In this document: positions 1-14,342 of the stretch, piece after piece
How positions within the stretch are numbered: the first letter of the stretch is position 1
How the letters are laid out: every line of letters begins with the position of its first letter
Source of the DNA: Candidatus Velthaea sp.
GTDB lineage: Bacteria > Vulcanimicrobiota > Vulcanimicrobiia > Vulcanimicrobiales > Vulcanimicrobiaceae
DNA length: 14,342 nucleotides
Assembly (NCBI GenBank): GCA_050012475.1
Contig: JBEKHC010000116.1
Span: 1 to 14,342, forward strand
Reading direction: 5' to 3'
Notes under the pieces: generated by a model
Database searches by the model: none
What the model saw: the letters and a program-made list of their open reading frames with translations, nothing else
What the model was told of the DNA's origin: nothing
Program-made: the position numbers and the translations under genes

Positions 1-80
1 CTTGCGGCGTCGCCACAGGCCGAAGGGTGCGGACGTAGCGAGCGAAGCCGAGGGCGCTAATCCCTGCGCGGCCGGCCTGA

Positions 81-208
81 TGGATTCGTCTCGGCTACGC
101 TCGACGAACCCGTGGATTCGTCTCGGCTGCGCTCGACGAACCCGTGGATTCGTCTCGGCTGCGCTCGGCGAACCCGTGGATTCGTCTCGGCTGCGCTCGA
201 CGAATCTG
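81..208. repeat. Tandem array of 4 x 32-bp palindromic (REP-like) units
   Basis: Unit tggattcgtctcggct(a/g)cgctcg(a/g)cgaacccg starts at 81, 113, 145 and 177 (the last ends ...gaatctg). Each unit has ttcgtc...gacgaa inverted arms. No unique spacers. Confidence 0.95.
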
Positions 209-320
209 CCAAGCCGCAGGCTGTACTCAAGCGAGGCCGAGGGCGCTCAACCAAAGCGTTTGGGGAGTCGCGTGCGATAGGACCTGCGACCCCAAAGGAT
301 ATCGCATCGCGCGCCTCACG

Positions 321-1934
321 CTAGTGCGGAATGATCCACGGGACGAGAAACTGCTGCACGGCAACCGTGATGCTCAACCCCAGCGTGAGGATGATGCTGT
401 GCGGAAACGTCCGCGCGAACACGACGCCCTCCTGCCCTTTGAGATCGGTGACCGACACGCCGGTCGCAAGGTTTTGCGGCGAGATCATCTTGCTCATGAC
501 GCCCCCCGACGAATTCGTCGCCGCGAACAGCACCGGATCGAGATGGAGCTGGCCCGCGGCGATCACTTGCAAGTTTCCGAACAGTGCGTTCCCCGACGTG
601 TCGCTGCCCGAGAGAAACACGGCCAGCCAACCCAGAAACGGTGAGAGGACGACGAACAGCAGGCCCACCGACGCCACGCCCAACCCGAGCGTGTAGTTCA
701 ATCCCGAGTAGTTCATCAAATACGCCAACCCGATGATGAGCATGACGGTGAGAATCGGGATGCGGCTCTGCCGCCAAGTGACCCCGACGCAGCGCACGAT
801 CTCGCGGGCGGGCAGCCGCACGAGCGCCGCGGTTATGAGCGCGGCGACGAGGATCGCGGTGCCGGTCGCAAGCGGCTGGAAGTCCCAGACCGCGGCGTAC
901 GGCGCGCCCTTATAGAGCGTGATCGAAATTGCTTTGTTTAGGCCCGGCCAGGCGATTTTGAGGTCGCCGAGTGCGGCGATGTTGAGCGTCGTCCAGACGA
1001 TGACGGTGACGGTGACGACGATCCAGGGAAGCCAAGCGCCAAGCGCACGTTGCGCACCCGTCGCCGGCGCGTGCGTGCGCGGCATGTCGCGCACGGGCAC
1101 GGCGTAGGCCGGATCGGGTTGCGGCTTCCACCGCTGCAGGAACAGTAAGGTCGCGAGCAGCGAGCCCAGCGACGACAACACGTCGGTGAGCGCGTAACTG
1201 ATGAAGTTCGAGCAGATGAATTGAATGCCGCCGAACGCGCCGCCGGCGACGAGCAGCACCGGCCACAGCGCTCGAATCGAGCGCAGACCGCCGTACACGC
1301 CGATCACATAAAACGGCAGGAAGAACGCGAAGATCGGCAGCTGCCGGCCGACCATCGCGCCCAGCACCGTCGGCGAAAGATGGGTGACCGCGCCGAGCAC
1401 GGTGATCGGCACGCCCAGCGCGCCGAACGCGACCGGGGCGGTGTCGAAAATCAGCGTGAAGACCAGCGCGTCGAGCGCCGGGAACCCGACGGCGATGAGC
1501 ACCGAGCTCGTGATCGCGACCGGCGTCCCGAAGCCGGCGACGCCCTCGAGCAAAGCGCCGAAGCAGTAGCCCATCACGATGAGCACGATCCGCCGGTCAT
1601 TCGGCAAGTGGTCGAGTACCCACGCGTTGAGCGCCTTGAACCGACCCGACTTCACGGCGATGTTGTAGAGCAGCAGCGCGTTGACGACAATCCACATCAC
1701 CGGCCACACCGCGAATGTCGCGCCGTTGGCGACGGCCGCAACCGCAAGTCCGACCGGAAGCTTCCACCACGCGACCGCGATCAGCAACCCCACGAGCAAG
1801 CCCCCGAGCGAGGCCTGCCAGGCCGGACGGCGTACGATGCCGAGCAGCGCCAGCACCGTTAGGACCGGCAGCGTCGCAACGACGAACGAAGGGAGCAGGG
1901 CACCGCCGACCGGCGTGAGCAGTTGGGGAAACAT
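321..1934 (-). CDS. lctP: L-lactate permease (LctP/LldP family)
   Basis: 537 aa, polytopic membrane protein. Family motifs FGALLEGVAGFGTPVAI, TAPVAFGALGVPI, FLSGSDTSGNALFGNLQ and NSSGGVMSKMISPQ. RBS gagagga upstream of ATG. Confidence 0.95.
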   Translation of the reverse strand: MFPQLLTPVGGALLPSFVVATLPVLTVLALLGIVRRPAWQASLGGLLVGLLIAVAWWKLPVGLAVAAVANGATFAVWPVMWIVVNALLLYNIAVKSGRFKALNAWVLDHLPNDRRIVLIVMGYCFGALLEGVAGFGTPVAITSSVLIAVGFPALDALVFTLIFDTAPVAFGALGVPITVLGAVTHLSPTVLGAMVGRQLPIFAFFLPFYVIGVYGGLRSIRALWPVLLVAGGAFGGIQFICSNFISYALTDVLSSLGSLLATLLFLQRWKPQPDPAYAVPVRDMPRTHAPATGAQRALGAWLPWIVVTVTVIVWTTLNIAALGDLKIAWPGLNKAISITLYKGAPYAAVWDFQPLATGTAILVAALITAALVRLPAREIVRCVGVTWRQSRIPILTVMLIIGLAYLMNYSGLNYTLGLGVASVGLLFVVLSPFLGWLAVFLSGSDTSGNALFGNLQVIAAGQLHLDPVLFAATNSSGGVMSKMISPQNLATGVSVTDLKGQEGVVFARTFPHSIILTLGLSITVAVQQFLVPWIIPH

Positions 1935-2074
1935 CGTTCGTCCTCTCGCGGATTGCGGTGATTGCTGTTCCCCGGTAGCCTACCCGCTTTGAGGAGCAAG
2001 TTTGCGCAGCGCATGCTCGATTGGCGCATCAACCGCGAATAGCGCAGCGTGCCAAGCGTTCGAAGGAGGAGAGC

Positions 2075-2488
2075 ATGACGGAGGCCTATCTCGGGGGCTG
2101 GTCGATTGCGCGATCGATCGTCGACTTCGACCGGAACGACGCGATCGATTGCGCCGGCGAAGCGACACTACAGGCGCTCGATCGAAGCATCGTCTACGCC
2201 GAACGGGTGCGGTTCGAGCTGGCAAACAAACTCATCCACGCGACGCGGAGCTATCACTTTACGACGTCGGACGGCGCGATCGTCGCCACCTTCAGCGACG
2301 GCGCACCGTTCTTCACCCTGCGGCTCGATGCCGGCGGCATCGGACGCGCCTTCCACCAGTGCGGCGGCGACCGGTACGCGCTGACCCTCGAACTGCGCGA
2401 GCCGGACCGCTGGCAAACGTGCTGGGACGTGAGCGGGACGAAGCGGCTGCGCATCACGAGCGCGTACCGGCGGTCCCGCCAGTCGTAA
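2075..2488 (+). CDS. DUF6314-like hypothetical protein (137 aa)
   Basis: Strong RBS aaggagga at 2063-2070 before ATG 2075. The pattern LGGWSIARSI...YAE...ATRSY...FSDGAPFF...HQCGGDRY...WDVSG...ITSAYRR matches my recollection of DUF6314. Confidence 0.75.
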   Translation: MTEAYLGGWSIARSIVDFDRNDAIDCAGEATLQALDRSIVYAERVRFELANKLIHATRSYHFTTSDGAIVATFSDGAPFFTLRLDAGGIGRAFHQCGGDRYALTLELREPDRWQTCWDVSGTKRLRITSAYRRSRQS

Positions 2489-2591
2489 CGATTCATGAGA
2501 CTGGCATTTTGATTGGCGGTGCGCTAGATTTTGGGTGCGGCAATGAATCCGCGTCGATGGCGCGCGTCTGCCGATGAGGGAGAACAGCGAG

Positions 2592-3173
2592 ATGTTTGCG
2601 ATGAAAACCGCCCGGGTGAAGGCTCTCTGGATCGTTCTCGGCGCTGCTGTTTGGGCGCTGTCCGCAGCCCACCTGCCGGCGGCGAGCGCGTCCGGGTCGG
2701 TGCCGGTGGTGAAAAGCACCGCAACGCCGGCACCGTGCACGGGGAACTGTCATCACGTGCAGCCCGACGTCATCGCCATGACCAATCCGCTCGCCCCATG
2801 CCCGTCGGCGGCCCCGAACAAGGGGCGCCCGCCGCTTCGTCCCGGTGGACCGATATCGTCGATGAAACTCGTGCCGCCGCCGGCAACGCCGAAGTTCGTC
2901 AGCTACACGTTGGGCACAACGTGGCTCGTCTCGCAGGTCGTCGCGTATCCGCACGAGCTCGACATCCAGCTTTCGTCCAACGGTACGCACGAGACGATAC
3001 ACGTCCCGTTCTCGGTCGCGCCGGCAGCCGCTGCGTTGACTTTTCCGGCCAATGCCAAAGCGCAAAGTGTCATCGGCCACGGTGCGAACGCGCAGCTGCT
3101 TTGGCTGCGCGGAACGGAAGGGCATTTCGTCAACTACGCGGTCTCGGCGCCCCCGTTCATCACGGCACCGTAG
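2592..3173 (+). CDS. Secreted hypothetical protein
   Basis: Sec-type signal (MKTARVK + hydrophobic stretch + AASA), Pro-rich linker with a CxxxC and a beta-rich C-terminus. Start is uncertain (2574, 2592 or 2601); gggag lies 9 nt before 2592. Confidence 0.7.
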
Positions 3174-5890
3174 CCGCCTGCCATCTGCGCGGCGAGCTCC
3201 GTTCGCGAACGCACGTCGAGCTTGGAGAAGACCGCCGCAACGTGATGTTCGACCGTCCGATTGCTGAGCGTCAGGTGTTCGGCGATCGAGCGGTTCGATA
3301 GTCCCTGCGCGACGAGCGTTGCGACGGAGCGTTCCCGCGGGGTGAGCGTTTGCGATCCGCGTTCACTGCGCCGCGCTCCGCCGGCAGTCAGTCGCCGCGC
3401 GTCACGCAGCGCGCCCATTTCGCGGTAGCGCGCGATTGCGGAGGCCCGATCGCCGGATAATTCGTCCGCCAACGCCGCAAGGGGCAGAAAGCCGAATCGG
3501 GCGGCAAGTTCGTTTGCCTCGCCGAGTTCCCGGTCGCGCGCTTTGACGTCGCCCGCGTTCGCGGCCGCGATCGCGCGCACGAGCAGCGCGTGCACGCGCA
3601 TGACCGGATCGGCGGCATCGGCCGGACCGAACAGCGCGGCCGCCCGCTGCGCTTCGGCCGGACCGCCGAAACGCGCGAACTTCAACAGCGCCTCGTACAC
3701 GTACGTTGCGTTGCGCAGGCGCGGCAGCGTCGTGCGGATGAGCGCGACCGCGCCGGCGGCATCCGCCCGCGCAACGCGCAGTTCGGCGTGCGCTGCGGCA
3801 AGCGCTGCGGCATTCTGGTCCGATCCGGTCTGCAGAACCTGCGCGAGCACATCCGCGGCGGCCAGCCGCGCAAGCAGCGCGTCGTCTTCGACCGCCAGAG
3901 CGATCGGGATACCGATCGCCGCCGCATAAAATCGCACGAACGCGCCCGGCACATTGAGCGCGCAAGCGAAACGCAGCAACCGGTGGGCCCGCCGAGCGTC
4001 GCCGCGTAAAAACGCGACATCGGCGGCCGTGAGCCGGGCATACGCGGCGGCGTACGTCAGCGCGTGCCGGTCGGCGACCTCGATGGCATGGTCCAGACCG
4101 GCCTCCGCAAGCGGATAATTCGCTTGCTGGCGGGCAAAATCGGCGAGCAGCGTCCAGCAGTTGGCAACGATCGCCGGATCTCCGTGCGCTTCGGCCGTTT
4201 TGACTGCCTCGAGCGCGAAGGTCTGCGACCGTTCGACCTGACCCAGCAAATTCGCGATCGCTGCAGCCGCGACGTGGCGTCGCACCACATATGCCGGGTC
4301 GCGTTCACCCTCGAACGCATCGGCCAGCAGCAAGTGGGTTTGCGCTTCGTCGACCTCGTCGCGAAAGGCGTGAAACATCGCCAGCAACGCTTCCGCGGCG
4401 AAGCGTTCGGCATCGCCCGCTCCGCTCGACGCGATCGCGTCGCGGCAGTGACGCAGCGTGGCGTCGGCGTCGGCGAGCCGATGGGCCGCATTGGCGAGGC
4501 GTAAGGCAAGCCGGGCGATGCCGCTGCGGTTGCCGATGGTCCGATAATGCTCCGCCGCCTGGGTGAAATGAACGTACGCGTCGCGCGCGGCTCCGAGCAG
4601 GTCGTGCGCGTGGCCGAGCTTTTCGCCGACGCGCGCAATGCTTTGCGCGTCGAGCACGCCGCCGTGCAGCGCGCGGTCGAAATGATCGCGCGCCGTCCCG
4701 TAAGCGCCCGCGGCGGCAGCGAGATCGCCGGCTGCTTCGGCGTAGGCCGACGCGCGATCGGGACGCCCCGCCCCATCCCAGTGCCGAGCGAGAACGGCGG
4801 CAGCGGGCCGGACGGCCGCCGTTTCGAGCCGGGTCGCAATGCGTTCATGGAGATCGCGCCGCTCGGTGCTCGTGAGCCGATCGTAGAGCGCTTCGCGGAT
4901 GAGTTCGTGGCGAAAGCGCGGCGCTTCGGCGCCGCGCCGGCCGGTTTCGATCGTCAAGCCGAGCGCACGCGCCGTGCGAAACAACGTGACCTCTTCGCGG
5001 CGTGAAATCGGCGCGAGTGCGCGCAGCAGGTCGAGGTCGATCACCGATCCGAGCGCAGCCGCGATTTCGAGCACCTCGACCCCGCCGGGAGGCAGCGACG
5101 AGAGCCGGCTGGTCACGGATTGCTTGACGGTCACGGGCAGCAACGGCGCTGACGGATGATCGAGCGCGTCGAGCACGAGATCCGAAGCGAACAGCGGATT
5201 GCCTTCGCTTTTGCGCCAGATCTCATCGATCACCGCCTGCGGCAGCAAACGCCCCAGCGGCAGCGCGCGGAAGATCAATTCGCGCGTTTCGTCTTCCTCC
5301 AGCGGCCCGACCGCGATCTCATATGTCGAACGAAGGTTCGGTTTTTCGTCCGCGCGCGCGGCCAGCGCGAGCACGACGCGCGCGCCGCCGAGCGTTGCCG
5401 TGAGATACTCGACGACCTCGAGCGACTCGGGATCGATCCATTGGACGTCGTCGATGGTCAAGAGCACCGGCGCGTAGCTGGCGACGGATTCGAGGAACTC
5501 GCGAACGATGACAAACAGCCGCCGCTTGTGCGCAGGCGCGTCCTCGACATCGTCCGGCGCGGGGAACAGGCCGAGAAACTTCGCGAAGAGGGCGCGGTCC
5601 GCGCTCTCGCGCGGCTGCGCGCGCGGTTCGTTCTGCGCCAGGATGCGGCATGCTTCGGCGATCGGCCCGTAGGCCTCGCGGGTAAAGGCGTAGTTCGTCG
5701 CCTCGCCGATTTTGAAGCCGCGCGCGCGAGCGACGCTCGTCCACTCGCGAAGCAAGCGCGTTTTCCCGATGCCCGGTTCGCCGCACACCAGCGTCGTCGA
5801 TCCGTCGCGCCGGAGCGCATCGTCGAGCCGCGCATCGATGAACGCGAGCTGTTCGCCGCGTCCGATCATCCCGACCCGCTCTCGTGCCAT
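3134..5890 (-). CDS. Large ATP-binding LuxR-family (LAL/STAND) transcriptional regulator: AAA ATPase + TPR-like helices + C-terminal LuxR HTH
   Basis: IGRGEQL, Walker A GEPGIGKT, Walker [30 protein letters not shown] and C-terminal [43 protein letters not shown]. True start is probably 5929, 5890 or 5869 rather than 6118. Confidence 0.93.
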
Positions 5891-5965
5891 AGCGGCCAGG
5901 CTTCGACGCGCACGGCGATTTCCGCCCATCGGGCCCGTGTGCCCGCAGGGCGATCCGGTAGGCGG

Positions 5966-6010
5966 ATAGGTGAAACTACCGATGTTCGGCGCGTCACCCG
6001 CGGCTAGACT
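5966..6010 (+). promoter_or_regulatory. Candidate LuxR-type operator plus -10 element of the divergent promoter
   Basis: Imperfect 18-bp palindrome ataggtgaaactaccgat at 5966-5983, TAGACT at 6005-6010 and no good -35. Confidence 0.5.
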
Positions 6011-6095
6011 GATCCTCATATTCATCGACCGCGGCGCACGACACCCCAACGGCATTCGCCGTCGACGGCCACTCCTTAGAAAGAAGGGCGATATC

Positions 6096-6254
6096 ATGCA
6101 AGGCCTGGTCCTTTTCATCTCGCTCGCCGATGCTATCCGAGCCGGCTACCAGATCGTCGACCAAACGCCGGACGGCTACGTCGTCCGCACGAAAACGGCG
6201 GCGGGTTGGGCCATGGCGTTGATCCGCGACCCGCGCAACGCGGCTGCGCGTTGA
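6096..6254 (+). CDS. Small hypothetical protein (52 aa)
   Basis: [52 protein letters not shown]. Purine-rich RBS aagaaggg, protein-like composition, divergent from the LAL gene. Confidence 0.8.
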
Positions 6255-6337
6255 GCGGGGCCGACAATGCATACGCCGGTTCCCCCGTTCGACCGCATGC
6301 GGCAGCCGCGCGATCCGCGCACCCGAGTACGACGCTG

Positions 6338-6604
6338 ATGGCACGCCTTTCAGCAAAGGAGATCGCGATCATCGCGGGTCTCGCCGACGGTCTGCAGAGC
6401 AAAGAAATTGCCGCCGTGGTGCGGCTCAGCAAAGCCAGCGTCGATACCTACATCCGCATCCTCTACGGCAAGCTTGACGCCCGTTCGCGCGCGCAGCTCG
6501 TTGCGGTAGCGTATGCCGCGGGCATCCTGTGCCGCCCCGAAACCGGCGGCATCGCCCAGCGTTACGCGGATCCGTCCACCGCGCGGATGGCCGCGAGCGA
6601 ATAA
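6338..6604 (+). CDS. Stand-alone LuxR/GerE-type HTH protein (88 aa)
   Basis: LSAKEIAIIAGLADGLQSKEIAAVVRLSKASVDTYIRILYGKLDARSRAQLVAVAYAAGI is a typical LuxR HTH. No receiver domain. Start codon uncertain. Confidence 0.88.
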   Translation: MARLSAKEIAIIAGLADGLQSKEIAAVVRLSKASVDTYIRILYGKLDARSRAQLVAVAYAAGILCRPETGGIAQRYADPSTARMAASE

Positions 6605-6616
6605 CGCTCGCGGCCA

Positions 6617-6790
6617 AGCCGCAAACGCAACGCCGGGTTTGCGGCGAAGCCGCGTACTTAACGGGTGGCTTGCGGGCGAAGCCGCATACGCAACGGTTGG
6701 TTGCGGCAAAGCCGCATGCGCAACGGCTTGCGCGCAGCCGCATACACAACGGGTTGCGCGCAGCCGCATACACAACGGGTTGCACGCAGC
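6617..6790. repeat. Degenerate tandem repeat, six units of 26-32 bp, between convergent genes
   Basis: Core agccgcatac(a/g)caacgg..ttgc starts at 6617, 6648, 6680, 6710, 6736 and 6762. Junctions of the first units form gcggc-gaa/aaa-gccgc hairpins. Confidence 0.9.
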
Positions 6791-6796
6791 ATAATC

Positions 6797-7207
6797 CTAT
6801 GGGTCGGGCTCGAATGAAACGGTGCTGATTTTTCCCTGCGGGTCGAAACCAAGTCTCATTCGTATGCTGCCGTTTTCGCAGCGCAGCGAATAGACATAGA
6901 TCGTGCTGCCGGACTCTTTGTATTTGAACAAGGAGTTGGCGGAATGCAGCGTGCCCAGCGGCTTCAAATGCGCGCTGATCGCGCCGACGACGTCGGCGCC
7001 CAGCTGTTCGTTGGCCCGCAGGGCATACAACGAACGATCGAGCGAACCGCGCTGCCAAGCGTCGAATTGGGCATCGACGCGGCGCGTGATCGCCGGATTT
7101 TCGGGCGCCTGCGCAGCGGACGCGGCGGAGCCGTTCGCCGCGTCCGACGCGTCGGCGAGCGGGCCGAGCACGGCGAGCACGGCAGATAAGGCGATGGTAG
7201 CGATCAT
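6797..7207 (-). CDS. Secreted hypothetical protein (136 aa)
   Basis: RBS ggagg. ATGA overlap with the upstream DCC1-like gene. Hydrophobic N-terminus and Ala/Ser linker, then a helical + beta domain ending LGFDPQGKISTVSF. Confidence 0.8.
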   Translation of the reverse strand: MIATIALSAVLAVLGPLADASDAANGSAASAAQAPENPAITRRVDAQFDAWQRGSLDRSLYALRANEQLGADVVGAISAHLKPLGTLHSANSLFKYKESGSTIYVYSLRCENGSIRMRLGFDPQGKISTVSFEPDP

Positions 7208-7632
7208 GAGCGTGAACCTCCGGAAGAATCAAGTGACGGGTGGCTGGCGAGAACGCACATCGACGCACCCAGCCACACCGAAAGGCGGCCGCGGTGGGCG
7301 GCGATCGCTCGGTAAACGAGCGCTTCGAGCGCGCAAACCAGGGGCAGAGACAAAACGGCGCCGGCACGAGCCGGCCAACCGCCCGCGCGTACCAACAGGA
7401 CGTTGAACGCGCGCGCGCCGACGTGAACGCGGCCGCCCTCGACGAGCACCATCGCGGCGGCGAAGGCGCGCCGGTCGATCCCCAGCCCGCGCACGATGCG
7501 GGCGAGCCCGGGGTCGCGGTCGATGCTTTGGTATCCCACGGACCGGACGCGCGCGGACCGCACCAGCCCGGAATGAGCGAATCGGGTGCACATGCCGCAA
7601 TCCGCGTCGAAAATCAGCACCGGACCCATCAT
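7204..7632 (-). CDS. DCC1-like thiol-disulfide oxidoreductase (DUF393)
   Basis: N-terminal VLIFDADCGMC (DxxCxxC), GRVHVGARAF and YRAIAAHRGRL. Coupled by ATGA overlaps at both ends. Confidence 0.9.
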   Translation of the reverse strand: MMGPVLIFDADCGMCTRFAHSGLVRSARVRSVGYQSIDRDPGLARIVRGLGIDRRAFAAAMVLVEGGRVHVGARAFNVLLVRAGGWPARAGAVLSLPLVCALEALVYRAIAAHRGRLSVWLGASMCVLASHPSLDSSGGSRS

Positions 7633-8663
7633 TCCATCCCGCGCGTCGGAAGCGTCGCAGTTACTGCGGCGGGACGCTCGACGAACGCACGCAGGAACTG
7701 CGCCGGCGCGACGCGTGCTGCGTACGTTCGCAGCGCCGACAGCGCGAGGCGGTAGTCGTCATCCGAAAACAGCATCGCTTCACACGCGATCATCACCAGC
7801 GAGAAGAGCGGCAGCGCCATCGTGTAAGCGATCCCGAGATGAAAGCCGATCGCGGCCAGCGCGACGACGTATTTCGCCGGACGCTGCCAGATGCAGAACG
7901 GGAACGCCGCTTGGAGAATCAGCGTGGCGTATGTCGCGGCGGCGACGAGGACGGCGCTTTGGTACACGTGGGCGCCCAGCGGCGTCAGGTTGAATTGATT
8001 CGAGCGTAAAATATAATACAGCGCCGTGCCGTCTTGCCACTTGTGCCCCGTAATCTTGTAGAAGCATGCCGCGGCGTACAGCAGACTCACTTGCCAGAGG
8101 ACCAACGCGACGCCGAAGTTGTGCAGCAAGGCGCGAGCGCGCCCGACGAAGCTATTCCTGCCATCCGTCGCCGTCGCGGGCGGCGCGAACCACTTACCGG
8201 CGACGAGATACGTGCTGCAATCGAGCGCCACCGCGTACATCAACAGGATCGTGGCGAGCGTCCAGCCGCTATCCGTAACGAAGCTGTCGCGCGCGATCAG
8301 GCACCAGGTGAAGATCGCGCAGGCAACGGTCGAGAACGGCACCCAGCGGCCGCAGGCGAATGCGACCGCCGAGAGCAGCCCGAGCCAAAAAATCAGCTCG
8401 AAACCGGCCGCCGAGGCCGATTGAAGATAGAGGTTGGGCCCGTGTTTTTCGACGAGTTCGCCAGCATATGACAGCGGGACGACGCCGTCGGGGCCCCACA
8501 GAAAACGCCGCCAGCCAAGATTTTCCAGGTAGAAGAGCACGATTGCGGTGCCCAAGAGCGCGCGCAACACGCTGCTGCCGATGCGCCGCTGGGGCGTCGT
8601 CAGCACCTCGAGCACGCGGTCCGCGAACGCCGCGATCCGTGCGGATCCCGCTGCCGCGCTCAT
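7629..8663 (-). CDS. HTTM-domain membrane protein (SdpB-like, vitamin-K-dependent carboxylase homology group)
   Basis: LRALLG, LWGPDG, QVSLLYAAACFYKITGHKWQDGTALYYIL and FHLGIAYTMALPLFSLVM. Multiple TM helices. Follows an SdpA/DUF5819-like gene. Confidence 0.88.
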   Translation of the reverse strand: MSAAAGSARIAAFADRVLEVLTTPQRRIGSSVLRALLGTAIVLFYLENLGWRRFLWGPDGVVPLSYAGELVEKHGPNLYLQSASAAGFELIFWLGLLSAVAFACGRWVPFSTVACAIFTWCLIARDSFVTDSGWTLATILLMYAVALDCSTYLVAGKWFAPPATATDGRNSFVGRARALLHNFGVALVLWQVSLLYAAACFYKITGHKWQDGTALYYILRSNQFNLTPLGAHVYQSAVLVAAATYATLILQAAFPFCIWQRPAKYVVALAAIGFHLGIAYTMALPLFSLVMIACEAMLFSDDDYRLALSALRTYAARVAPAQFLRAFVERPAAVTATLPTRGME

Positions 8664-9319
8664 GACGCCGCCTCGGCGGCAGCCGCGCCGGTAACCGGCA
8701 GCCAGGGGAACAGCAGCGTGTCGTTGTGCTTTCTGGAATCGTCGGCAGCGAACCGCTGGGTGAAGCGCGGGAACACGTGCTCCACGATCGCGATCTGCAC
8801 GCTGCGCGGATGCGTCGCGCCGCCGGCGCCGAGAAACAGCGCGAGCCGGACGAGACCTTCGAGGATCATCGGACGCGTGCGCGGATCGGTGAAGGCCTGC
8901 ACTTGCTGCGGTTTGAACTTGCCTTTGCCCAGCGCGCTGTCGTCGAGCGCGGAGACGGTGAGGTTCATCGCCAGCACCTTGAGCGTCATGTAGCGGGAAA
9001 ACGGATGCGCGCGCAACTCATCGAGCAGCGGGTCGGTGAGATTGACCCAGGCGGTGGGCTCGCCGCGTTCGGTCCGCGTCCGCGCCAGGATCACGATATC
9101 GCTCTCGATGGGCGTCGGCGCGAACATGTTCCAGTATTGTTCGAAGTACGGGTGCATGTAGCCGAGCACGGCCGGACGCAGTGCTTCGCCGAGCGGATTG
9201 ACAGGCAGCGCGAAGAGCGTCTCCGCGCTCGCGTGAACGACAAGGACGACGGCGAACGTAACGCTCAAGGCCCAGAGCGCGATCCGTTCGCGAGACGAGG
9301 CAAAGCCTCTGCTGTGCAT
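8660..9319 (-). CDS. SdpA-like / DUF5819 family protein (219 aa)
   Basis: RBS gaggaa before ATG 9319. N-terminal TM helix, then H...LFALPVNP...YMHPYFEQYWNMFAPTP. ATGA overlap with the HTTM gene. Confidence 0.82.
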   Translation of the reverse strand: MHSRGFASSRERIALWALSVTFAVVLVVHASAETLFALPVNPLGEALRPAVLGYMHPYFEQYWNMFAPTPIESDIVILARTRTERGEPTAWVNLTDPLLDELRAHPFSRYMTLKVLAMNLTVSALDDSALGKGKFKPQQVQAFTDPRTRPMILEGLVRLALFLGAGGATHPRSVQIAIVEHVFPRFTQRFAADDSRKHNDTLLFPWLPVTGAAAAEAAS

Positions 9320-9359
9320 GCGGTGTTCCTCTCGGTAGGCGAATGCGGACGAAGCATGT

Positions 9360-9390
9360 ACGCAGGGCGCGCCCCGAGCGCGCCCCACGT
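9360..9390 (-). other. 13-bp RNA hairpin directly 3' of the peptide gene (stability or attenuation element)
   Basis: Minus strand acgtggggcgcgc-tcggg-gcgcgccctgcgt gives 11 Watson-Crick + 2 G.U pairs. The full pairing works only on the minus (sense) strand. No U-tract. Confidence 0.65.
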
Positions 9391-9399
9391 CGTCGGGAT

Positions 9400-9651
9400 T
9401 TAGCTGTCGAGGAGTTTCGCCGCTTCGCTTGCGCTCGTGGAGAGAATCCCGCTCGAGGCTACTTTGTCGCTCACGACAAAGGTGAGCGGCGAGACGATTC
9501 GGACGTGCCAATCCGGGCGAGCCACGCTCGAGAAGGCAACGGCTGCGGTGTTCGTGTTTACCACGTGAGGAGGTTGCGCCAACGCCGAACCAACGGCGAG
9601 GGCGGCGATCGGCAAAACTGCCGCGACGGTGACCAGTGCTTTGTGCTTCAT
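9400..9651 (-). CDS. Small secreted peptide, putative SdpC-like/RiPP precursor (83 aa)
   Basis: RBS ggag before ATG 9651. Signal peptide MKHKALVTVAAVLPIAALAVGSALA. Mature part is Ser/Thr/Val/Ala-rich with one Trp and no Cys. Immediately upstream of sdpAB-like genes. Confidence 0.75.
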   Translation of the reverse strand: MKHKALVTVAAVLPIAALAVGSALAQPPHVVNTNTAAVAFSSVARPDWHVRIVSPLTFVVSDKVASSGILSTSASEAAKLLDS

Positions 9652-9833
9652 GTTTGCTCCAAGGCGAGAGCCGCTGCGATCGAGCGGCAGTGATGTGGTG
9701 CGAGCGACCGCAACGCGAAGGCAGATCGCGCGTTGCTCGCAATTCCAGCGTAGCGGGCCTGGAGCGCGGCGTCTATTTCTCATTGTCGTTACGATAAGTC
9801 GCAGGACCGTCGCGCCGCCCGTCGTACGCAGGG

Positions 9834-11009
9834 TCACTCGCGCAAGCGGCGCCGGCTGCGCAGACGCCATGCGAGCACGAGGGCGCCGGCAACCACCCCG
9901 CCTGCCGCAAACATCGGCAGATCGTGGGCAACGGCCGCCGGCGGAAGTGCGGCCATCAGGTGCGGCAGCTGTTGGAACACGCTGCGCGCCAATCGCACGC
10001 TGAACCACGTCCAGCTCGCGAGCGCGATGAAACTGTAGACGGTCAGTACCGCGACGGTAAACGGCGGCAACGGCGGTGCCGGCACATGCCCGCACCGGGC
10101 GAAGCGGGACGCCAACCGCCGAAACGTGCGCTCAACGTGCGCGTGCAAGCCGCTGACGCCCAAAACATCGGAGACGATCCAGTATCCGTCGAAGCGAAAG
10201 AGCGGATTGAGGTCCAGCAGCGCGGCAGCGATAATGAACGTAATCGCGCAGTGGAGCGCGGCGGCGTGGGTCTGGACATAGATCGCGGCGTAACACGCGC
10301 CGCAGATGCTCTGAACGTACAAGCCTCCGCAGTCGACGGCGATCCGCCGGCGACGGTCGAGCCGCCAAATGCGCGTCACGTCGCTGTAGAAGACGGGAAA
10401 CACGAGGTACAGTGCGAGCCCAATCGAGCCCGGCCGCACAGCGAAGCGTTTGCAGGCACCGGCGTGCCCGAACTCGTGCGCCAAGCACGAAACGACGAAC
10501 AGCGCGTAACCGGCCGGCACATCGTACCGGCCAAGGCGCCGCGGCGCGACGTGTTGCGTATCGATCCAGTACGCGCCGGCGGCGGCGGCGACGAGCGCGA
10601 TGAGCACCGGCACCGCAACGGGTCCGAACAGCGCCGCGAAAGGCGTCGCGATCCGCCCAGCGAGTTTCGCCGGAAACAGCGTTCGGCGCAGCAGGAAGCC
10701 GTGCTTGCGCGCTCGCGTGCGTTGCTGCTCTTCCGCTCTGTCAATGCCCGCGACGACGCGATCGTAGACCCGGCCGACATCAGTGGCGTTGAGTTGCCGT
10801 TCGTTGTCGCTGCACCGGATCGCTATTTCCTCAAAGCTCGCGCCGTTCCACGCGTCCGCGACGACCCGGTATGCCAGTTCGGACAAGCGCACTTGTACGC
10901 CCGAATCGCAGTCCAGCACGTAGCTGACACGCACGTCGCTACCGTCGAGCACGTGCAACGTCCCGCGCGCGATGCGCGCCGACGCGGGCGGCGATTCGAA
11001 CGTCGTCAC
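9834..11009 (-). CDS. M50-family (YydH-like) membrane zinc metallopeptidase with probable N-terminal PqqD/RRE-like domain
   Basis: HEFGH at 10464-10478, IGLALYLVFPVFYSDVT, VDCGGLY and DLNPLFRFDGYW. The first ~95 aa read as three strands then three helices. GTGA overlap with the upstream gene. Confidence 0.9.
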   Translation of the reverse strand: MTTFESPPASARIARGTLHVLDGSDVRVSYVLDCDSGVQVRLSELAYRVVADAWNGASFEEIAIRCSDNERQLNATDVGRVYDRVVAGIDRAEEQQRTRARKHGFLLRRTLFPAKLAGRIATPFAALFGPVAVPVLIALVAAAAGAYWIDTQHVAPRRLGRYDVPAGYALFVVSCLAHEFGHAGACKRFAVRPGSIGLALYLVFPVFYSDVTRIWRLDRRRRIAVDCGGLYVQSICGACYAAIYVQTHAAALHCAITFIIAAALLDLNPLFRFDGYWIVSDVLGVSGLHAHVERTFRRLASRFARCGHVPAPPLPPFTVAVLTVYSFIALASWTWFSVRLARSVFQQLPHLMAALPPAAVAHDLPMFAAGGVVAGALVLAWRLRSRRRLRE

Positions 11010-11977
11010 ACCGCGACGTCGCCGCGCCGCGGTCCGCGGCGATTCCGGCGCACGATCGCGCTCAAGTCGCGCTGCAATGCGTCAATCACGCGATCCGACT
11101 CTTCGAGCAGCGCGTGCCACGGCAATGGCCGAGCGCGATCGGCTGCGTCGAACGCGAGCGCGAGATTTGCGCGCGCCAGTCCGAGGAACTCGTCGGCATG
11201 GCCGCCATAATAGAGTTCGCGCGCCAGCGCGGCAAGATCGGAAATCGGCTCGGGCGTATCCGGCAAGCCGAGCACCGTGGCGAGTCGAGCGGTTACCAGC
11301 GTTGGGCGATGGGCTTGGAGATCGGCTTTCCAATCCTGGAGATCGTCTAAAATCTGGTGCGCGAGATTGTATTTCTCGAGCGAGAGCAGCAGCGCATCGG
11401 TACGCGAAGCATCGCTGCCGAGCAGGTTGAGCCCCACGATCGCCACGCGCGAAACGCAGCTCTTGGCTGATGCTATCGCGATGCATTCGGCCGTCGTCGC
11501 ATCCGCGAGCCGCCGGCGCCGCGTCGAATAGCTCGCCTCCTTGATCACGCCGCCCAGATACTCGGCAAGCGCGGCTTGAAGCGTCTCCCAGAAGACGCTG
11601 TCGGGCGCGAACGTCCGCCCCAGTTCACGCTGCAATTCGCACTGCGCGCCTTGCCAGCAGAGCAGAAACGACGTTCGTTGCTCGCGCTCGAGTTCTTCAT
11701 CGAAGAGCGCGTCGGCAATCACGATCGTGCCGGCGAGCAGTTCACAACCGGCCAGGAACCGTGCCAGAAGCTCCTGGTCGATATCGCCGAACGCGTCAGC
11801 GAAAAGTAACGGGAAGATCGCGATCGCAGAATCCGGCAGCAAGCCGGAAAAATCAACCTTGCGCGGCCAGCGCCGCTGCATCGCCGCGACGTCGCCGGCC
11901 AGCCGGGCCAACGTCGCGTCCCGATCGGCGGTCGAGAATTTGCGGAAGGTACGCTTGAGTTCAAGGAGGTTGGCCAT
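11006..11977 (-). CDS. Class I isoprenoid-synthase-fold protein (polyprenyl synthetase-like; putative ComQ-like peptide prenyltransferase), 323 aa
   Basis: RBS gagga before ATG 11977. Degenerate first Asp motif IADALFDEE, then AKS, then second motif HQILDDLQDWKADL at about 11330-11356. All-helical character. Confidence 0.8.
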   Translation of the reverse strand: MANLLELKRTFRKFSTADRDATLARLAGDVAAMQRRWPRKVDFSGLLPDSAIAIFPLLFADAFGDIDQELLARFLAGCELLAGTIVIADALFDEELEREQRTSFLLCWQGAQCELQRELGRTFAPDSVFWETLQAALAEYLGGVIKEASYSTRRRRLADATTAECIAIASAKSCVSRVAIVGLNLLGSDASRTDALLLSLEKYNLAHQILDDLQDWKADLQAHRPTLVTARLATVLGLPDTPEPISDLAALARELYYGGHADEFLGLARANLALAFDAADRARPLPWHALLEESDRVIDALQRDLSAIVRRNRRGPRRGDVAV

Positions 11978-12457
11978 GGCTGTCCTCAGTCGAGAGCCGT
12001 CACGGCGTCCTGGGCAATGGACATGACGGTGTTCTCCAAATCGCGATTCGCGGGACACGCAGGCGGAGAGCGCAGGAAGCGCTCATCGCCCGTCGTGATG
12101 TCAGCGACGTGTGGTTATTCGTAGGGCGAGTATCGCACGATCGGGCTGCGGCTTGTTCGCCGCGCCCGTAGTCATCTTAAGGCGCCGCTCGAGTTCGTTC
12201 GTCTCTCAACTGTCATCTCGCTTGTCTTTTCGTCCAGCTCTTCGTCGTTCTTCAGTCACGAAGCTACGGCTTCGCTCCCTCATCACTCCTCGATCTGAAC
12301 GAAAATCCTTCGCGATCTTATGCCACGAACTTCTGAGTCGGGACACTGAGTAAACCTCGGTTCATCGTGATCTCTCGTCAAGCGTAGCCCGAGCGATTCC
12401 GGCGCGCAATCTTTCATTTGTGCTACGAGGAGTCGCAATCGCCGGCGGCCGGGCACG

Positions 12458-13000
12458 TCACGCTCGGATCTGCGTCGAACCAGCTTCGCCTCCGACGATG
12501 ACGCCGCCACTGCGCTGCACGATGAACGCCGTGTACGAGACGCGCATAAGCGACGTGGATGTGCCAAAGACGGCCAGCGACAGTTGGAGAACCCCGGACC
12601 CCGCAGCGGCCGAGTACGACACCGCAGCGGCATCGACAGCGAAGCCGAGCGGCGGAATGAAGACCAAACCGCCGCCCGCCGACGTGCCGGCGATCGGCTG
12701 GACGACGACTAGCTCGACGTCGGGGCCCACCGAGCTGCCCGCGGGCGTCAGCGAATATGGCGTCCAAAACGAAGCCGGAGCCGCCGAGGCGATACCGCTG
12801 ACGAACTCGCCGGCCGTGCACGGGCCGCCGACCGGAAACGACAGCGTGTCGCGCGTCCAATCGTGCGCGTGGGTACCGACGAACGCAAACACCGCGACGC
12901 CGGTCTCGACCGTGACGGTAAGCGCTCCGAGGACGGGTAAGCTCGGCGCGCCGCCGGGAAATTCGATCTGCTGCGACTCTTTGGAGGTCAGGGTGATCAC
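12458..13000 (-). CDS. Hypothetical beta-rich protein (180 aa)
   Basis: Strong RBS gaaaggaa. GTG start overlaps the stop of the cyclase-like gene (GTGA). Rich in Gly/Ala/Val/Ser/Thr. No family recognised. Confidence 0.78.
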   Translation of the reverse strand: MITLTSKESQQIEFPGGAPSLPVLGALTVTVETGVAVFAFVGTHAHDWTRDTLSFPVGGPCTAGEFVSGIASAAPASFWTPYSLTPAGSSVGPDVELVVVQPIAGTSAGGGLVFIPPLGFAVDAAAVSYSAAAGSGVLQLSLAVFGTSTSLMRVSYTAFIVQRSGGVIVGGEAGSTQIRA

Positions 13001-14037
13001 GTGATCGTTTCCTTTCGGTTCGGGCTATGCGCTCCATTGGGTACGTCGTCCGACGATGAACGCTCCCGCATCATCAGGCTCAGCGCGCGCGCGACGGTGG
13101 CCGTCGTAAACAGAAAATAGTCGTCGTCGTGGAGCGGCCCACCCGCTTCGCCCGGCAATTCCCACGGGCGTTCGACATCATCGTACGTCACGCGCAGCAT
13201 GGGCTTGGCGGCCCACCAGCCCTCTGCCGATTGCGTTTCGAGCAGCGCTGCGGCAACGTCGAACACGAACGCCGCAGTCGGGCCGGAACCGAAGCGAGCG
13301 ACGATCTCGAGGGCCAGCGCGCGATCGAACGGATCGCGATCGACTGCCGCGGCAAGGATCGCAAGGGCCGGAGGTATTGCCGGGCGCCCCGCCGCCTCCA
13401 ACGCGGCCAAGTTGTGGAGGGTCGCATAGAGGGGCGTGCGATACCAGTAGGAATTCCACAGCCCGTCGTCCCTGCGCTGGGAGGCGATGAACGCGAGCGC
13501 TTTCTCGCGCGTTGCCGACGGCGCCGCCAGCGCGCGCACGACGAGCGGTGTGACGTCTGGATGACTGCGCGTCCACGCGGACGCAGCGACGGTGTCGGAC
13601 GCGCCGGTGTTGTACGTCGCGAACCCGCCGTCGGAACGCGCAAACGTCTGGAGGATACGGTCGGTCTCGCTTCCCGGAGCGCTTCCCATCGACGTAAGGA
13701 AGAGCGCGGCCCAACTCGTCGAGTCGCTGTCGGAGGGGACCCGCGTATTGTAGCCCCAGCTGCCGTCGGCGCGGCGCGAGGCCTTCAGGAATTGGGCGGC
13801 CCGCTCGAGTGCGCCGCGCAGATAGTGCCGTTCGGGCGCACGCACGATCGGTTCCGTCTCGAACAAACACCAACCGATGTAAGCGGTCGTCCACGTGTCG
13901 GAACGTCCCACGGCGAGATTGAAATCGGGCCAGGCGCCGTTGGGCGCCTGCATCTCGACGATGTAGCGGCTGGCCCGATCGATCGCGCTGCCCAAATCGG
14001 GCAGCAGTGCGCGCCCATCGTGCTGTCGGGCGCGCAC
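12997..14037 (-). CDS. Prenyltransferase/squalene-oxidase-repeat protein; single-domain class II terpene cyclase-like
   Basis: QW-type repeats QAPNGAW, RRADGSWGY, RSDGGFATY, QRRDDGLWNSYW and QSAEGWW. DSDST at 13717-13731 occupies the DxDD position. 346 aa fits one alpha6/alpha6 barrel. Confidence 0.85.
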   Translation of the reverse strand: MRARQHDGRALLPDLGSAIDRASRYIVEMQAPNGAWPDFNLAVGRSDTWTTAYIGWCLFETEPIVRAPERHYLRGALERAAQFLKASRRADGSWGYNTRVPSDSDSTSWAALFLTSMGSAPGSETDRILQTFARSDGGFATYNTGASDTVAASAWTRSHPDVTPLVVRALAAPSATREKALAFIASQRRDDGLWNSYWYRTPLYATLHNLAALEAAGRPAIPPALAILAAAVDRDPFDRALALEIVARFGSGPTAAFVFDVAAALLETQSAEGWWAAKPMLRVTYDDVERPWELPGEAGGPLHDDDYFLFTTATVARALSLMMRERSSSDDVPNGAHSPNRKETIT

Positions 14038-14038
14038 G

Positions 14039-14342
14039 TCAGCGGCACTCCAGCGCAGGCGACGCCGGCGCCGCAGCCGGGGCAGCGCCCTTCACGTGCG
14101 CTCCGTACGCCTCCGCGACCTTCGTTCGGAAGCGTTTGCCGAACGCATCGCAATAGTTTGCGTGCATCGTCGTGCCGTTGGCGGCCTCGGCCAGCACCGC
14201 GCAGCCGCCGCCGCAATACAACGCGAAGCGGCAGCGCCGGCAGGTCGGATTCGAGACGACGGTACGTTGGCGCCAGTTTTGCTCGCGCTCGGCAACGAAC
14301 TGCAGACTGCCGGATGGATCGATCCAACCGATCCGGATGTTC
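14039..14342 (-). CDS. C-terminal part of a radical SAM/SPASM-domain protein (5' end outside window)
   Basis: Frame is open to the window edge: NIRIGWIDPSGSLQFVAEREQNWRQRTVVSNPTCRRCRFALYCGGGCAVLAEAANGTTMHANYC. This is Cx2Cx5Cx3C plus a distal Cys, the SPASM AuxII pattern. Stop is 1 nt before the next start. Confidence 0.88.
   Translation of the reverse strand, partial: NIRIGWIDPSGSLQFVAEREQNWRQRTVVSNPTCRRCRFALYCGGGCAVLAEAANGTTMHANYCDAFGKRFRTKVAEAYGAHVKGAAPAAAPASPALECR

Follow-up and report, generated by a model that had tools for sequence, protein, structure and literature searches.

The window analysed here is a 14,342-nt stretch of Candidatus Velthaea sp. DNA (GenBank assembly GCA_050012475.1, contig JBEKHC010000116.1, positions 1 to 14,342), and it comprises an entire contig (C116), one of the 204 in the genome. 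Ten minus-strand open reading frames (ORFs), all present when the ORFs were checked, resemble genes for terpene cyclisation, for the Sdp system of Bacillus subtilis and for peptides made by the ribosome and modified after translation (RiPPs). In the direction of transcription they are as follows, with IDS for isoprenyl diphosphate synthase and RRE for RiPP recognition element.

14039..14342, minus strand: radical S-adenosylmethionine (rSAM)/SPASM maturase, C-terminal 100 aa, with a SPASM match; about 520 aa in full
12997..14037, minus strand: 346-aa class II terpene cyclase, MstE-like, monodomain and stand-alone, DxD motif D103-S-D105
12458..13000, minus strand: 180-aa protein, likely an accessory insertion, 49 homologues
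11006..11977, minus strand: 323-aa stand-alone protein of the trans-IDS fold, predicted to prenylate a peptide (Trp), with motifs D89-x3-D93 and Q208-x2-D211-D212-x2-D215
9834..11009, minus strand: M50 intramembrane metalloprotease with a putative N-terminal RRE, predicted leader peptidase, HEFGH and NPLFRFDG motifs
9400..9651, minus strand: 83-aa protein whose start resembles a signal peptide, the Sdp-like block's likely substrate
8660..9319, minus strand: DUF5819 membrane protein (Pfam, E 3.5e-20), which we take to be SdpA-like
7629..8663, minus strand: HTTM/SdpB-like membrane protein (TIGR04033 at E 2e-11, below cut-off; HTTM at E 0.001)
7204..7632, minus strand: DCC1-like thiol-disulfide oxidoreductase with CxxC (Pfam, E 1.7e-10)
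6797..7207, minus strand: 136-aa protein with a signal-peptide-like start, probably accessory to the Sdp-like block, no Pfam or NCBIfam match

The layout described in the initial annotation was confirmed throughout: the genes are co-oriented, with 4-nt overlaps reading GTGA at 12997-13000 and 11006-11009 and ATGA at 8660-8663, 7629-7632 and 7204-7207, a 1-nt gap at 14038 and a 480-nt gap at 11978-12457. Every enzyme gene is intact and keeps its catalytic motifs, and the third-position GC content (GC3) is 0.75-0.81.

The final 22 nt of the window are also the end of a second contig of the assembly, C74, and this 22-mer is confined to these two ends; other contig pairs of the assembly are likewise joined by short terminal overlaps. 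Seven residues are common to the rSAM pieces on the two contigs, in frame across the overlap. Given this unique in-frame overlap, we conclude that C74 and C116 adjoin. A contig from sequencing run X1, which may be the source sample, also continues 1207 nt past the window end. Sequence beyond position 14342, sought since the initial annotation, is thus available on C74 and supplies two further features.

C74, L001:15177-16458: N-terminal 427 aa of the rSAM protein, CxxxCxxC present
C74, L001:14907-15044: 45-aa precursor gene, upstream of the rSAM start

A ribosomal precursor had been expected, and this 45-aa ORF, just upstream and bearing Trp, fits that role. It has an acidic leader (DDLDISELEQRLEM) and a core with a single Cys, ending C-V-V-M-V-V-W-H-W-K; the leader, the Cys and the last or next-to-last Trp are conserved in all three precursor homologues. 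The 180-aa, 83-aa and 12-codon ORFs of the window had been considered as terpene-RiPP precursors and were dropped once the C74 peptide was found. The SPASM domain match bears out the radical SAM call, and three features of ranthipeptide or sactipeptide maturases are there: CxxxCxxC on C74, a seven-Cys SPASM region in the window and a Cys-bearing core. The nearest models are geopeptide, PapB and CefB.

The class II cyclase had also been called correctly. The 346-aa protein matches the squalene-hopene cyclase C domain (Pfam, E 2e-9) and MstE-like structures in the PDB (8pak, E 5e-22; MstE, 6sbb, E 5e-15), aligning over most of its length with 8pak and 8paj and over residues 12-228 with MstE. Its DSDST falls on the DADT of MstE, and the class II acid motif is intact. 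MstE is likewise a monodomain class II enzyme of 300-400 aa with DxD instead of DxDD (PMC12414744), but it takes a prenylated benzoate, geranylgeranyl-dihydroxybenzoate (PMC9401909), whereas the window cyclase likely takes a prenylated peptide. Other stand-alone MstE-like cyclases (L053, L058, L059, L060) lie beside an unclassified 330-aa protein with no Pfam match, and in L060 a Nif11 precursor bearing Trp lies upstream of the cyclase relative.

As a single query the 323-aa protein gave no match in Pfam or the PDB and nothing relevant in NCBIfam. Its family is large (653 relatives at E 0.001 or better, counted as 50% representatives), and a 60-sequence family profile leads to polyprenyl synthases, with 4lob at E 1e-12; the Atlas model of the protein has template modelling (TM) scores of 0.76-0.78 to class 1 isoprenoid enzyme models. 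D89/D93, Q208 and D211/D212/D215 are conserved in 137-149 of 154 aligned homologues (Q208 in 137). Eighty of the 154 are at least 550 aa long, and 54 of this long group also match the cyclase of the window, so that natural prenyltransferase-cyclase fusions exist; the long proteins keep D103 in 69 and D105 in 66 of the 80 cases. The two activities are thus fused in at least 54 of 154 homologues and separate in the window, L008, L009 and L047.

The ComQ-like prenyltransferase of the initial annotation stands as regards the class I IDS fold, seen in both profile and structure model, and is not borne out as regards ComQ itself (IPR033965): neither Pfam nor NCBIfam gave a ComQ or PalQ family match, and the window enzyme has a full DDxxD second motif, which ComQ lacks in the account of PMC10853753. 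The motifs of PalQ are given as D89/D93, Q197 and D200/D204 (PMC10853753). The fold, the first motif D-x3-D and a Gln that stands three residues ahead of the second Asp motif are shared with PalQ/ComQ, the D-x3-D and Q-x2-D-x3-D spacings are identical to those of PalQ, and in each case a short precursor carries Trp at or near its C-terminus (PMC10853753). That Gln (Q208 here) is typical of the Trp prenyltransferases PalQ, ChrPC and ComQ. The differences are that the window enzyme, unlike PalQ/ComQ, lies beside a cyclase, an rSAM enzyme and an M50 protease, and that PalQ is described as intolerant of a C-terminal extension past Trp (PMC13290415), whereas the window precursor ends W-K.

For the M50 protein the best NCBIfam match is the daptide-type HExxH protease model (E 1.6e-23), at a score of 83.5 against a cut-off of 300. 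In the daptide pathway MpaP is reported to cleave off the leader (bioRxiv 2023.03.08.531785). Like daptide MpaP and the YydH RRE-site-2 proteases, the window protein is an HExxH intramembrane protease with an N-terminal extension; unlike daptide loci, this one has no daptide enzymes, and its precursor lacks a C-terminal Thr.

Sixteen loci with prenyltransferase homologues were compared, three on genome contigs, seven metagenomic and six from 400 genomes of the phylum. A cyclase match occurs in 12, an M50 match in 10, an rSAM match in 8 and a precursor with the same leader type in 11, all lower bounds since seven of the loci are shorter than 6 kb. Sequence comparison thus supports reading the rSAM/SPASM, prenyltransferase, cyclase and RRE-M50 proteins as one recurring RiPP pathway, since their homologues recur together, often as prenyltransferase-cyclase fusions. 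Two genomes (G062, G275) carry a precursor and a fusion enzyme with no close rSAM, which links the leader to the prenyltransferase. No DUF5819 or HTTM gene was found in any of the 16 loci. Of the sub-blocks set apart in the initial annotation, the enzyme genes of 12458-14342 and 9834-11977 recur together, and DUF5819 and HTTM of 6797-9651 accompany them in none of the 16.

Several related loci have peculiarities of their own. L045 (5125-5550) and L046 (1834-2214) encode long precursors with a twin-arginine translocation (Tat)-like N-terminus (a weak model match for L046), an ELxARL leader and a Trp core; each adjoins a fused prenyltransferase-cyclase gene, and neither an rSAM nor an M50 gene lies nearby. 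In L047 (G243) a stand-alone cyclase, two prenyltransferase homologues, a DUF6895 protein, an rSAM enzyme and two Tyr-rich precursors occur together with two genes that are cupin-like by eye. L049 has five tandem precursor copies (5144-6586) between the rSAM gene and a gene that is glycosyltransferase-like by eye, followed by the M50 and fusion enzymes. A prenyltransferase tree of 18 rows shows no clustering of Trp versus Tyr cores: it takes 4 changes, and 217-219 of 500 shuffles are as low.

The 180-aa gene and the 480-nt gap set this locus apart from its closest relatives. The 180-aa protein had no Pfam, NCBIfam or usable Atlas match, and its single-sequence model reached a predicted local distance difference test (pLDDT) of 39. 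Its family, in which 44 aligned members share an invariant DWTRD and further motifs, gave two weak matches in 400 phylum genomes, one of them in G377; its profile resembles designed beta-propeller repeats over about 55 positions, a hint that comes from summed weak repeats only. L008 and L009, the two loci nearest to this one (58-65% identity), lack this gene between cyclase and prenyltransferase, and since cyclase, prenyltransferase and M50 there run uninterrupted, gene and gap are likely later additions at the present locus. The following features lie in the gap, and a related one lies ahead of the Sdp-like block.

12381..12435, minus strand: second copy of the promoter-like motif (copy 2), made up of a predicted operator, then 14 nt, a -35 box, a further 17 nt and TACGCT
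12214..12349, minus strand: truncated dispersed element resembling a miniature inverted-repeat transposable element (MITE), with matches on 18 other contigs and no Rfam match
12158..12196, minus strand: second-precursor remnant, leader end ELERRLKM, no start codon, core deleted
11986..12119, minus strand: rSAM 5' duplicate, 77% identical to C74:25081-25205 along 125 nt (E 8e-19)
9747..9801, minus strand: promoter-like motif copy 3, preceding the Sdp-like block

From its sequence the gap is a decayed, co-linear copy of the promoter, precursor and rSAM start found on C74. The precursor remnant is identical to the C74 precursor at 21 of 27 nt, a score reached at 3 places in 10.7 million, and motif and start are spaced 411 nt apart in the gap, against 410 nt on C74. 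A 12-codon ORF (12024-11986) closes the rSAM duplicate, its stop overlapping the ribosome-binding site of the prenyltransferase gene. The dispersed element is full in its C148 copy, with terminal inverted repeats, and lacks the right repeat in the window; an NDEELD stretch once considered as a precursor remnant was rejected, as it lies inside this element.

All three motif copies consist of CGACTnnTCGTA, 14 nt, a -35-like hexamer, 17-18 nt and TACGCT, and the two-part pattern matches the genome at exactly three places, C74:24767 and window positions 12435 and 9801. Between C74 and copy 3 the local alignment score is 49, reached by none of 1000 shuffles. The motif was not found in five relatives and is absent before the orthologue of the 83-aa gene in G017, and a consensus promoter scan did not detect the three copies. 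We infer that it comprises an activator site and a sigma-70 promoter. As it precedes all three units, co-regulation of the RiPP pathway and the Sdp-like block is likely. Two genes elsewhere in the window are candidate binders of the motif, a large ATPase-LuxR regulator (3134-6118, minus strand) and a small LuxR-type ORF (6206-6604, plus strand).

The Sdp-type family calls of the initial annotation were recovered, DUF5819 and DCC1 as matches and SdpB below cut-off. The block's inclusion in one enzyme set with the terpene and RiPP genes was not. DUF5819, matched in 9 of 300 other phylum genomes, was not found in any of nine prenyltransferase genomes, nor the prenyltransferase in any of eight DUF5819 genomes (one weak match of the nine was left out); both are rare, so these counts indicate independence and not avoidance. 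A paralogous block on contig C2 (83-aa-like, DUF5819, HTTM, DCC1 and 136-aa-like genes, 32-62% identity) has no RiPP gene match within 20 kb. In G017 the block is 59-75% identical, the 83-aa gene included, and DNA similarity ends just upstream of that gene. The 83-aa protein has its 59% orthologue there directly before DUF5819 and a 32% paralogue on C2; the 136-aa protein has a 49% paralogue after DCC1 on C2 and a 30% copy on C27. Small signal-peptide-like ORFs, judged by eye, precede DUF5819 in 8 of 10 loci. Given this secreted ORF of its own, the C2 copy and the lack of overlap with prenyltransferase genomes, we regard the block as a separate module with its own predicted secreted substrate. 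The boundary between two clusters, provisionally placed at the 480-bp gap, lies instead in the 9652-9833 gap.

As in sdpABC of Bacillus subtilis, an SdpB-like HTTM protein and a DUF5819 partner stand beside a secreted precursor; unlike there, the block opens with the secreted ORF, which has 83 aa and no Cys, and the DCC1 and 136-aa genes are extra. The SdpB model gave the HTTM protein 44 bits against a cut-off of 178, and the 83-aa ORF had no SdpC match in Pfam or NCBIfam. SDP contains a disulfide. Active SDP in Bacillus subtilis requires SdpA and SdpB (PMC5719810). Imperfect tandem repeats of about 26 nt (6640-6790) directly follow the 136-aa gene, and its C2 paralogue is seemingly followed by similar ones. 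The C2 block also has a 1080-aa protein between HTTM and DCC1 (L002:11298-14540), with carboxypeptidase-regulatory-like and weak TonB plug matches.

Taken together, the locus probably holds two modules, a terpene-RiPP pathway acting on Trp of the 45-aa precursor and a separate, likely co-regulated Sdp-like module. The reactions, sites, chain length and order that we infer from these genes would run as follows. The first step would fall to the rSAM/SPASM enzyme, cross-linking the core's only Cys, probably through a thioether. Next, with the acidic DISELEQRL leader bound, the trans-IDS-fold enzyme would attach a prenyl group of C15-C20 to one of the C-terminal Trp residues, W44 being the likeliest. 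The DxD of the MstE-like cyclase would protonate the terminal alkene, so that the chain folds into rings, and the RRE-M50 protease would cut off the leader in the membrane. The Sdp-like block (83-aa, DUF5819, HTTM, DCC1 and 136-aa proteins) likely matures its own exported peptide.

The nearest described system is the ChrPC-type terpene-RiPP route, of which the RiPP module is likely a split-gene, rSAM-containing variant, a likeness drawn from the published description rather than from ChrPC sequence. ChrPC and NctPC, described in 2024, are prenyltransferase-cyclase fusions modifying a peptide Trp (PMC13290415), and steromaze is a known terpene-RiPP hybrid (PMC13647313). Both routes pair a trans-IDS-like prenyltransferase and a class II cyclase with a Trp-bearing ribosomal peptide (PMC13290415); here, unlike in the ChrPC fusion, each activity has its own gene, that of the cyclase preceding that of the prenyltransferase, Trp stands close to the C-terminus instead of internally, and the set also includes an rSAM/SPASM enzyme and an RRE-M50 protease. 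The hybrid RiPP-terpene cluster originally proposed is supported in its RiPP enzyme set and Trp precursor, and calling it new goes too far, such enzyme pairs having been described on ribosomal peptides in 2024 (PMC13290415). The literature searched, which omits most subscription papers, held no paper on a pathway joining rSAM, IDS-type prenyltransferase, cyclase and M50 protease. ChrPC-type prenyltransferase-cyclase RiPP maturases and steromaze-type terpene-RiPP hybrids are reportedly the subject of Hubrich et al. in Chem in 2024, and that paper or its supplements may already list such a cluster type.

A number of observations weigh against parts of this reading. The RRE half of the RRE-M50 call, in distinction to the protease half with its motifs and daptide-type match, is weak, drawing on a PqqD match at E 0.48 (3g2b) and on Pfam PqqD in 1 of 8 homologues (E 0.018). 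The N-terminal 452 aa of the rSAM protein score 84-91 bits against cut-offs of 340-600 for PapB, CefB and geopeptide; a full-length homologue (52% identity) scores 105-126 on the same models, also below cut-off. Six of the 11 related precursors (L007, L010, L011, L014, L047, L049) have Tyr and no Trp, and the Gln before the second Asp motif, which is said to read Trp, is retained in 4 of 6 such loci and hence is not diagnostic of Trp targeting. (In five of these six precursors Tyr stands within two residues of Cys; the L049 enzyme and one of the two in L047 lack the conserved Gln, possibly a sign of non-Trp prenylation.) Stand-alone cyclases (32-41%) resemble the window cyclase more than fused domains do (about 22-33%, local); the closest of them occur in 7 of 400 phylum genomes, six of which were not among the matches to the window prenyltransferase family. 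On the regulatory side, the two-part pattern was derived from the copies themselves, leaving the pairwise shuffle test as the one independent measure, and copy 2 is weaker by it (38 of 1000 shuffles against C74, 11 of 1000 against copy 3); the mobile element between copy 2 and the prenyltransferase gene could also disturb expression.

The cyclase relationships would suit a peptide that is only linearly prenylated or only rSAM-linked, with the cyclase acting on a small-molecule meroterpenoid as MstE does on its geranylgeranyl-dihydroxybenzoate (PMC9401909), and since the class I family finds its best structural matches in polyprenyl synthases, the class I protein might instead be a chain-elongating synthase feeding the cyclase. 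We think this unlikely: the first motif is D-x3-D and not DDxxD, three ordinary polyprenyl synthases are encoded elsewhere in the genome, the class I family is often cyclase-fused and precursor-flanked, a stand-alone cyclase relative lies near the Trp-bearing Nif11 precursor of L060, and the cluster has no UbiA-type or aromatic-acceptor gene. Quite unlikely, in our view, is that the locus, a result of duplication and rearrangement, is in decay and has lost the ability to make a complete product. The gap, with its broken precursor copy, 12-codon rSAM stub and truncated element, does look like decay, in one sequencing run it has gained 16 nt by insertion and lost 1 nt, and the cluster was not found in three genomes of the same genus; yet the enzyme genes keep their catalytic motifs and GC3, few variants are listed in the runs across 9900-14342, and the intact C74 precursor has conserved homologues.

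That all ten genes serve one product, the HTTM/DUF5819/DCC1 block further modifying or exporting the terpenylated peptide, we hold to be very unlikely. The genes are co-oriented, no exporter gene is in view within the RiPP block, and the promoter-like copy before the 83-aa gene matches the upstream region of the precursor as no shuffle did and is missing before the G017 orthologue. Against this stand the absence of DUF5819 from the 16 loci and nine prenyltransferase genomes, the converse absence in eight DUF5819 genomes, the block's own conserved secreted ORF and the C2 paralogue, with no RiPP gene match within 20 kb. We therefore retain the two-module reading.

As for the wider setting, none of 139 candidate viral contigs gave a relative, nor did plasmids, and Rfam had no match in window positions 6100-14342. 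Short repeats of about 32 nt, resembling repetitive extragenic palindromic (REP) elements and recurring on many contigs, occupy window positions 1-250.

The locus may be one member of a wide family, an idea that we put forward tentatively and hold to be possible rather than probable, in which a trans-IDS enzyme reads a common acidic ELExRL leader and, with rSAM and cyclase, builds cross-linked polycyclic-terpene peptides, the terpene sitting on a C-terminal Trp at this locus and on Tyr at roughly half of the related ones; promoter duplication would in this genome have brought the pathway and an Sdp-like secreted peptide under one regulon. If true, this would bring the first enzyme of the trans-IDS fold that prenylates a residue other than Trp; the loci with Tyr-only cores bear directly on the statement in PMC13290415 that all characterised trans-IDS-like peptide prenyltransferases target Trp. 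Few enzymes that make cyclised-terpene peptides are characterised, and the literature searched held no case of an rSAM step accompanying prenyltransferase and cyclase. With a 45-aa precursor and a prenyltransferase and cyclase that can be assayed separately, the locus would make a small test case, and its triplicated promoter-like motif may be an example of how unrelated peptide modules become co-regulated.

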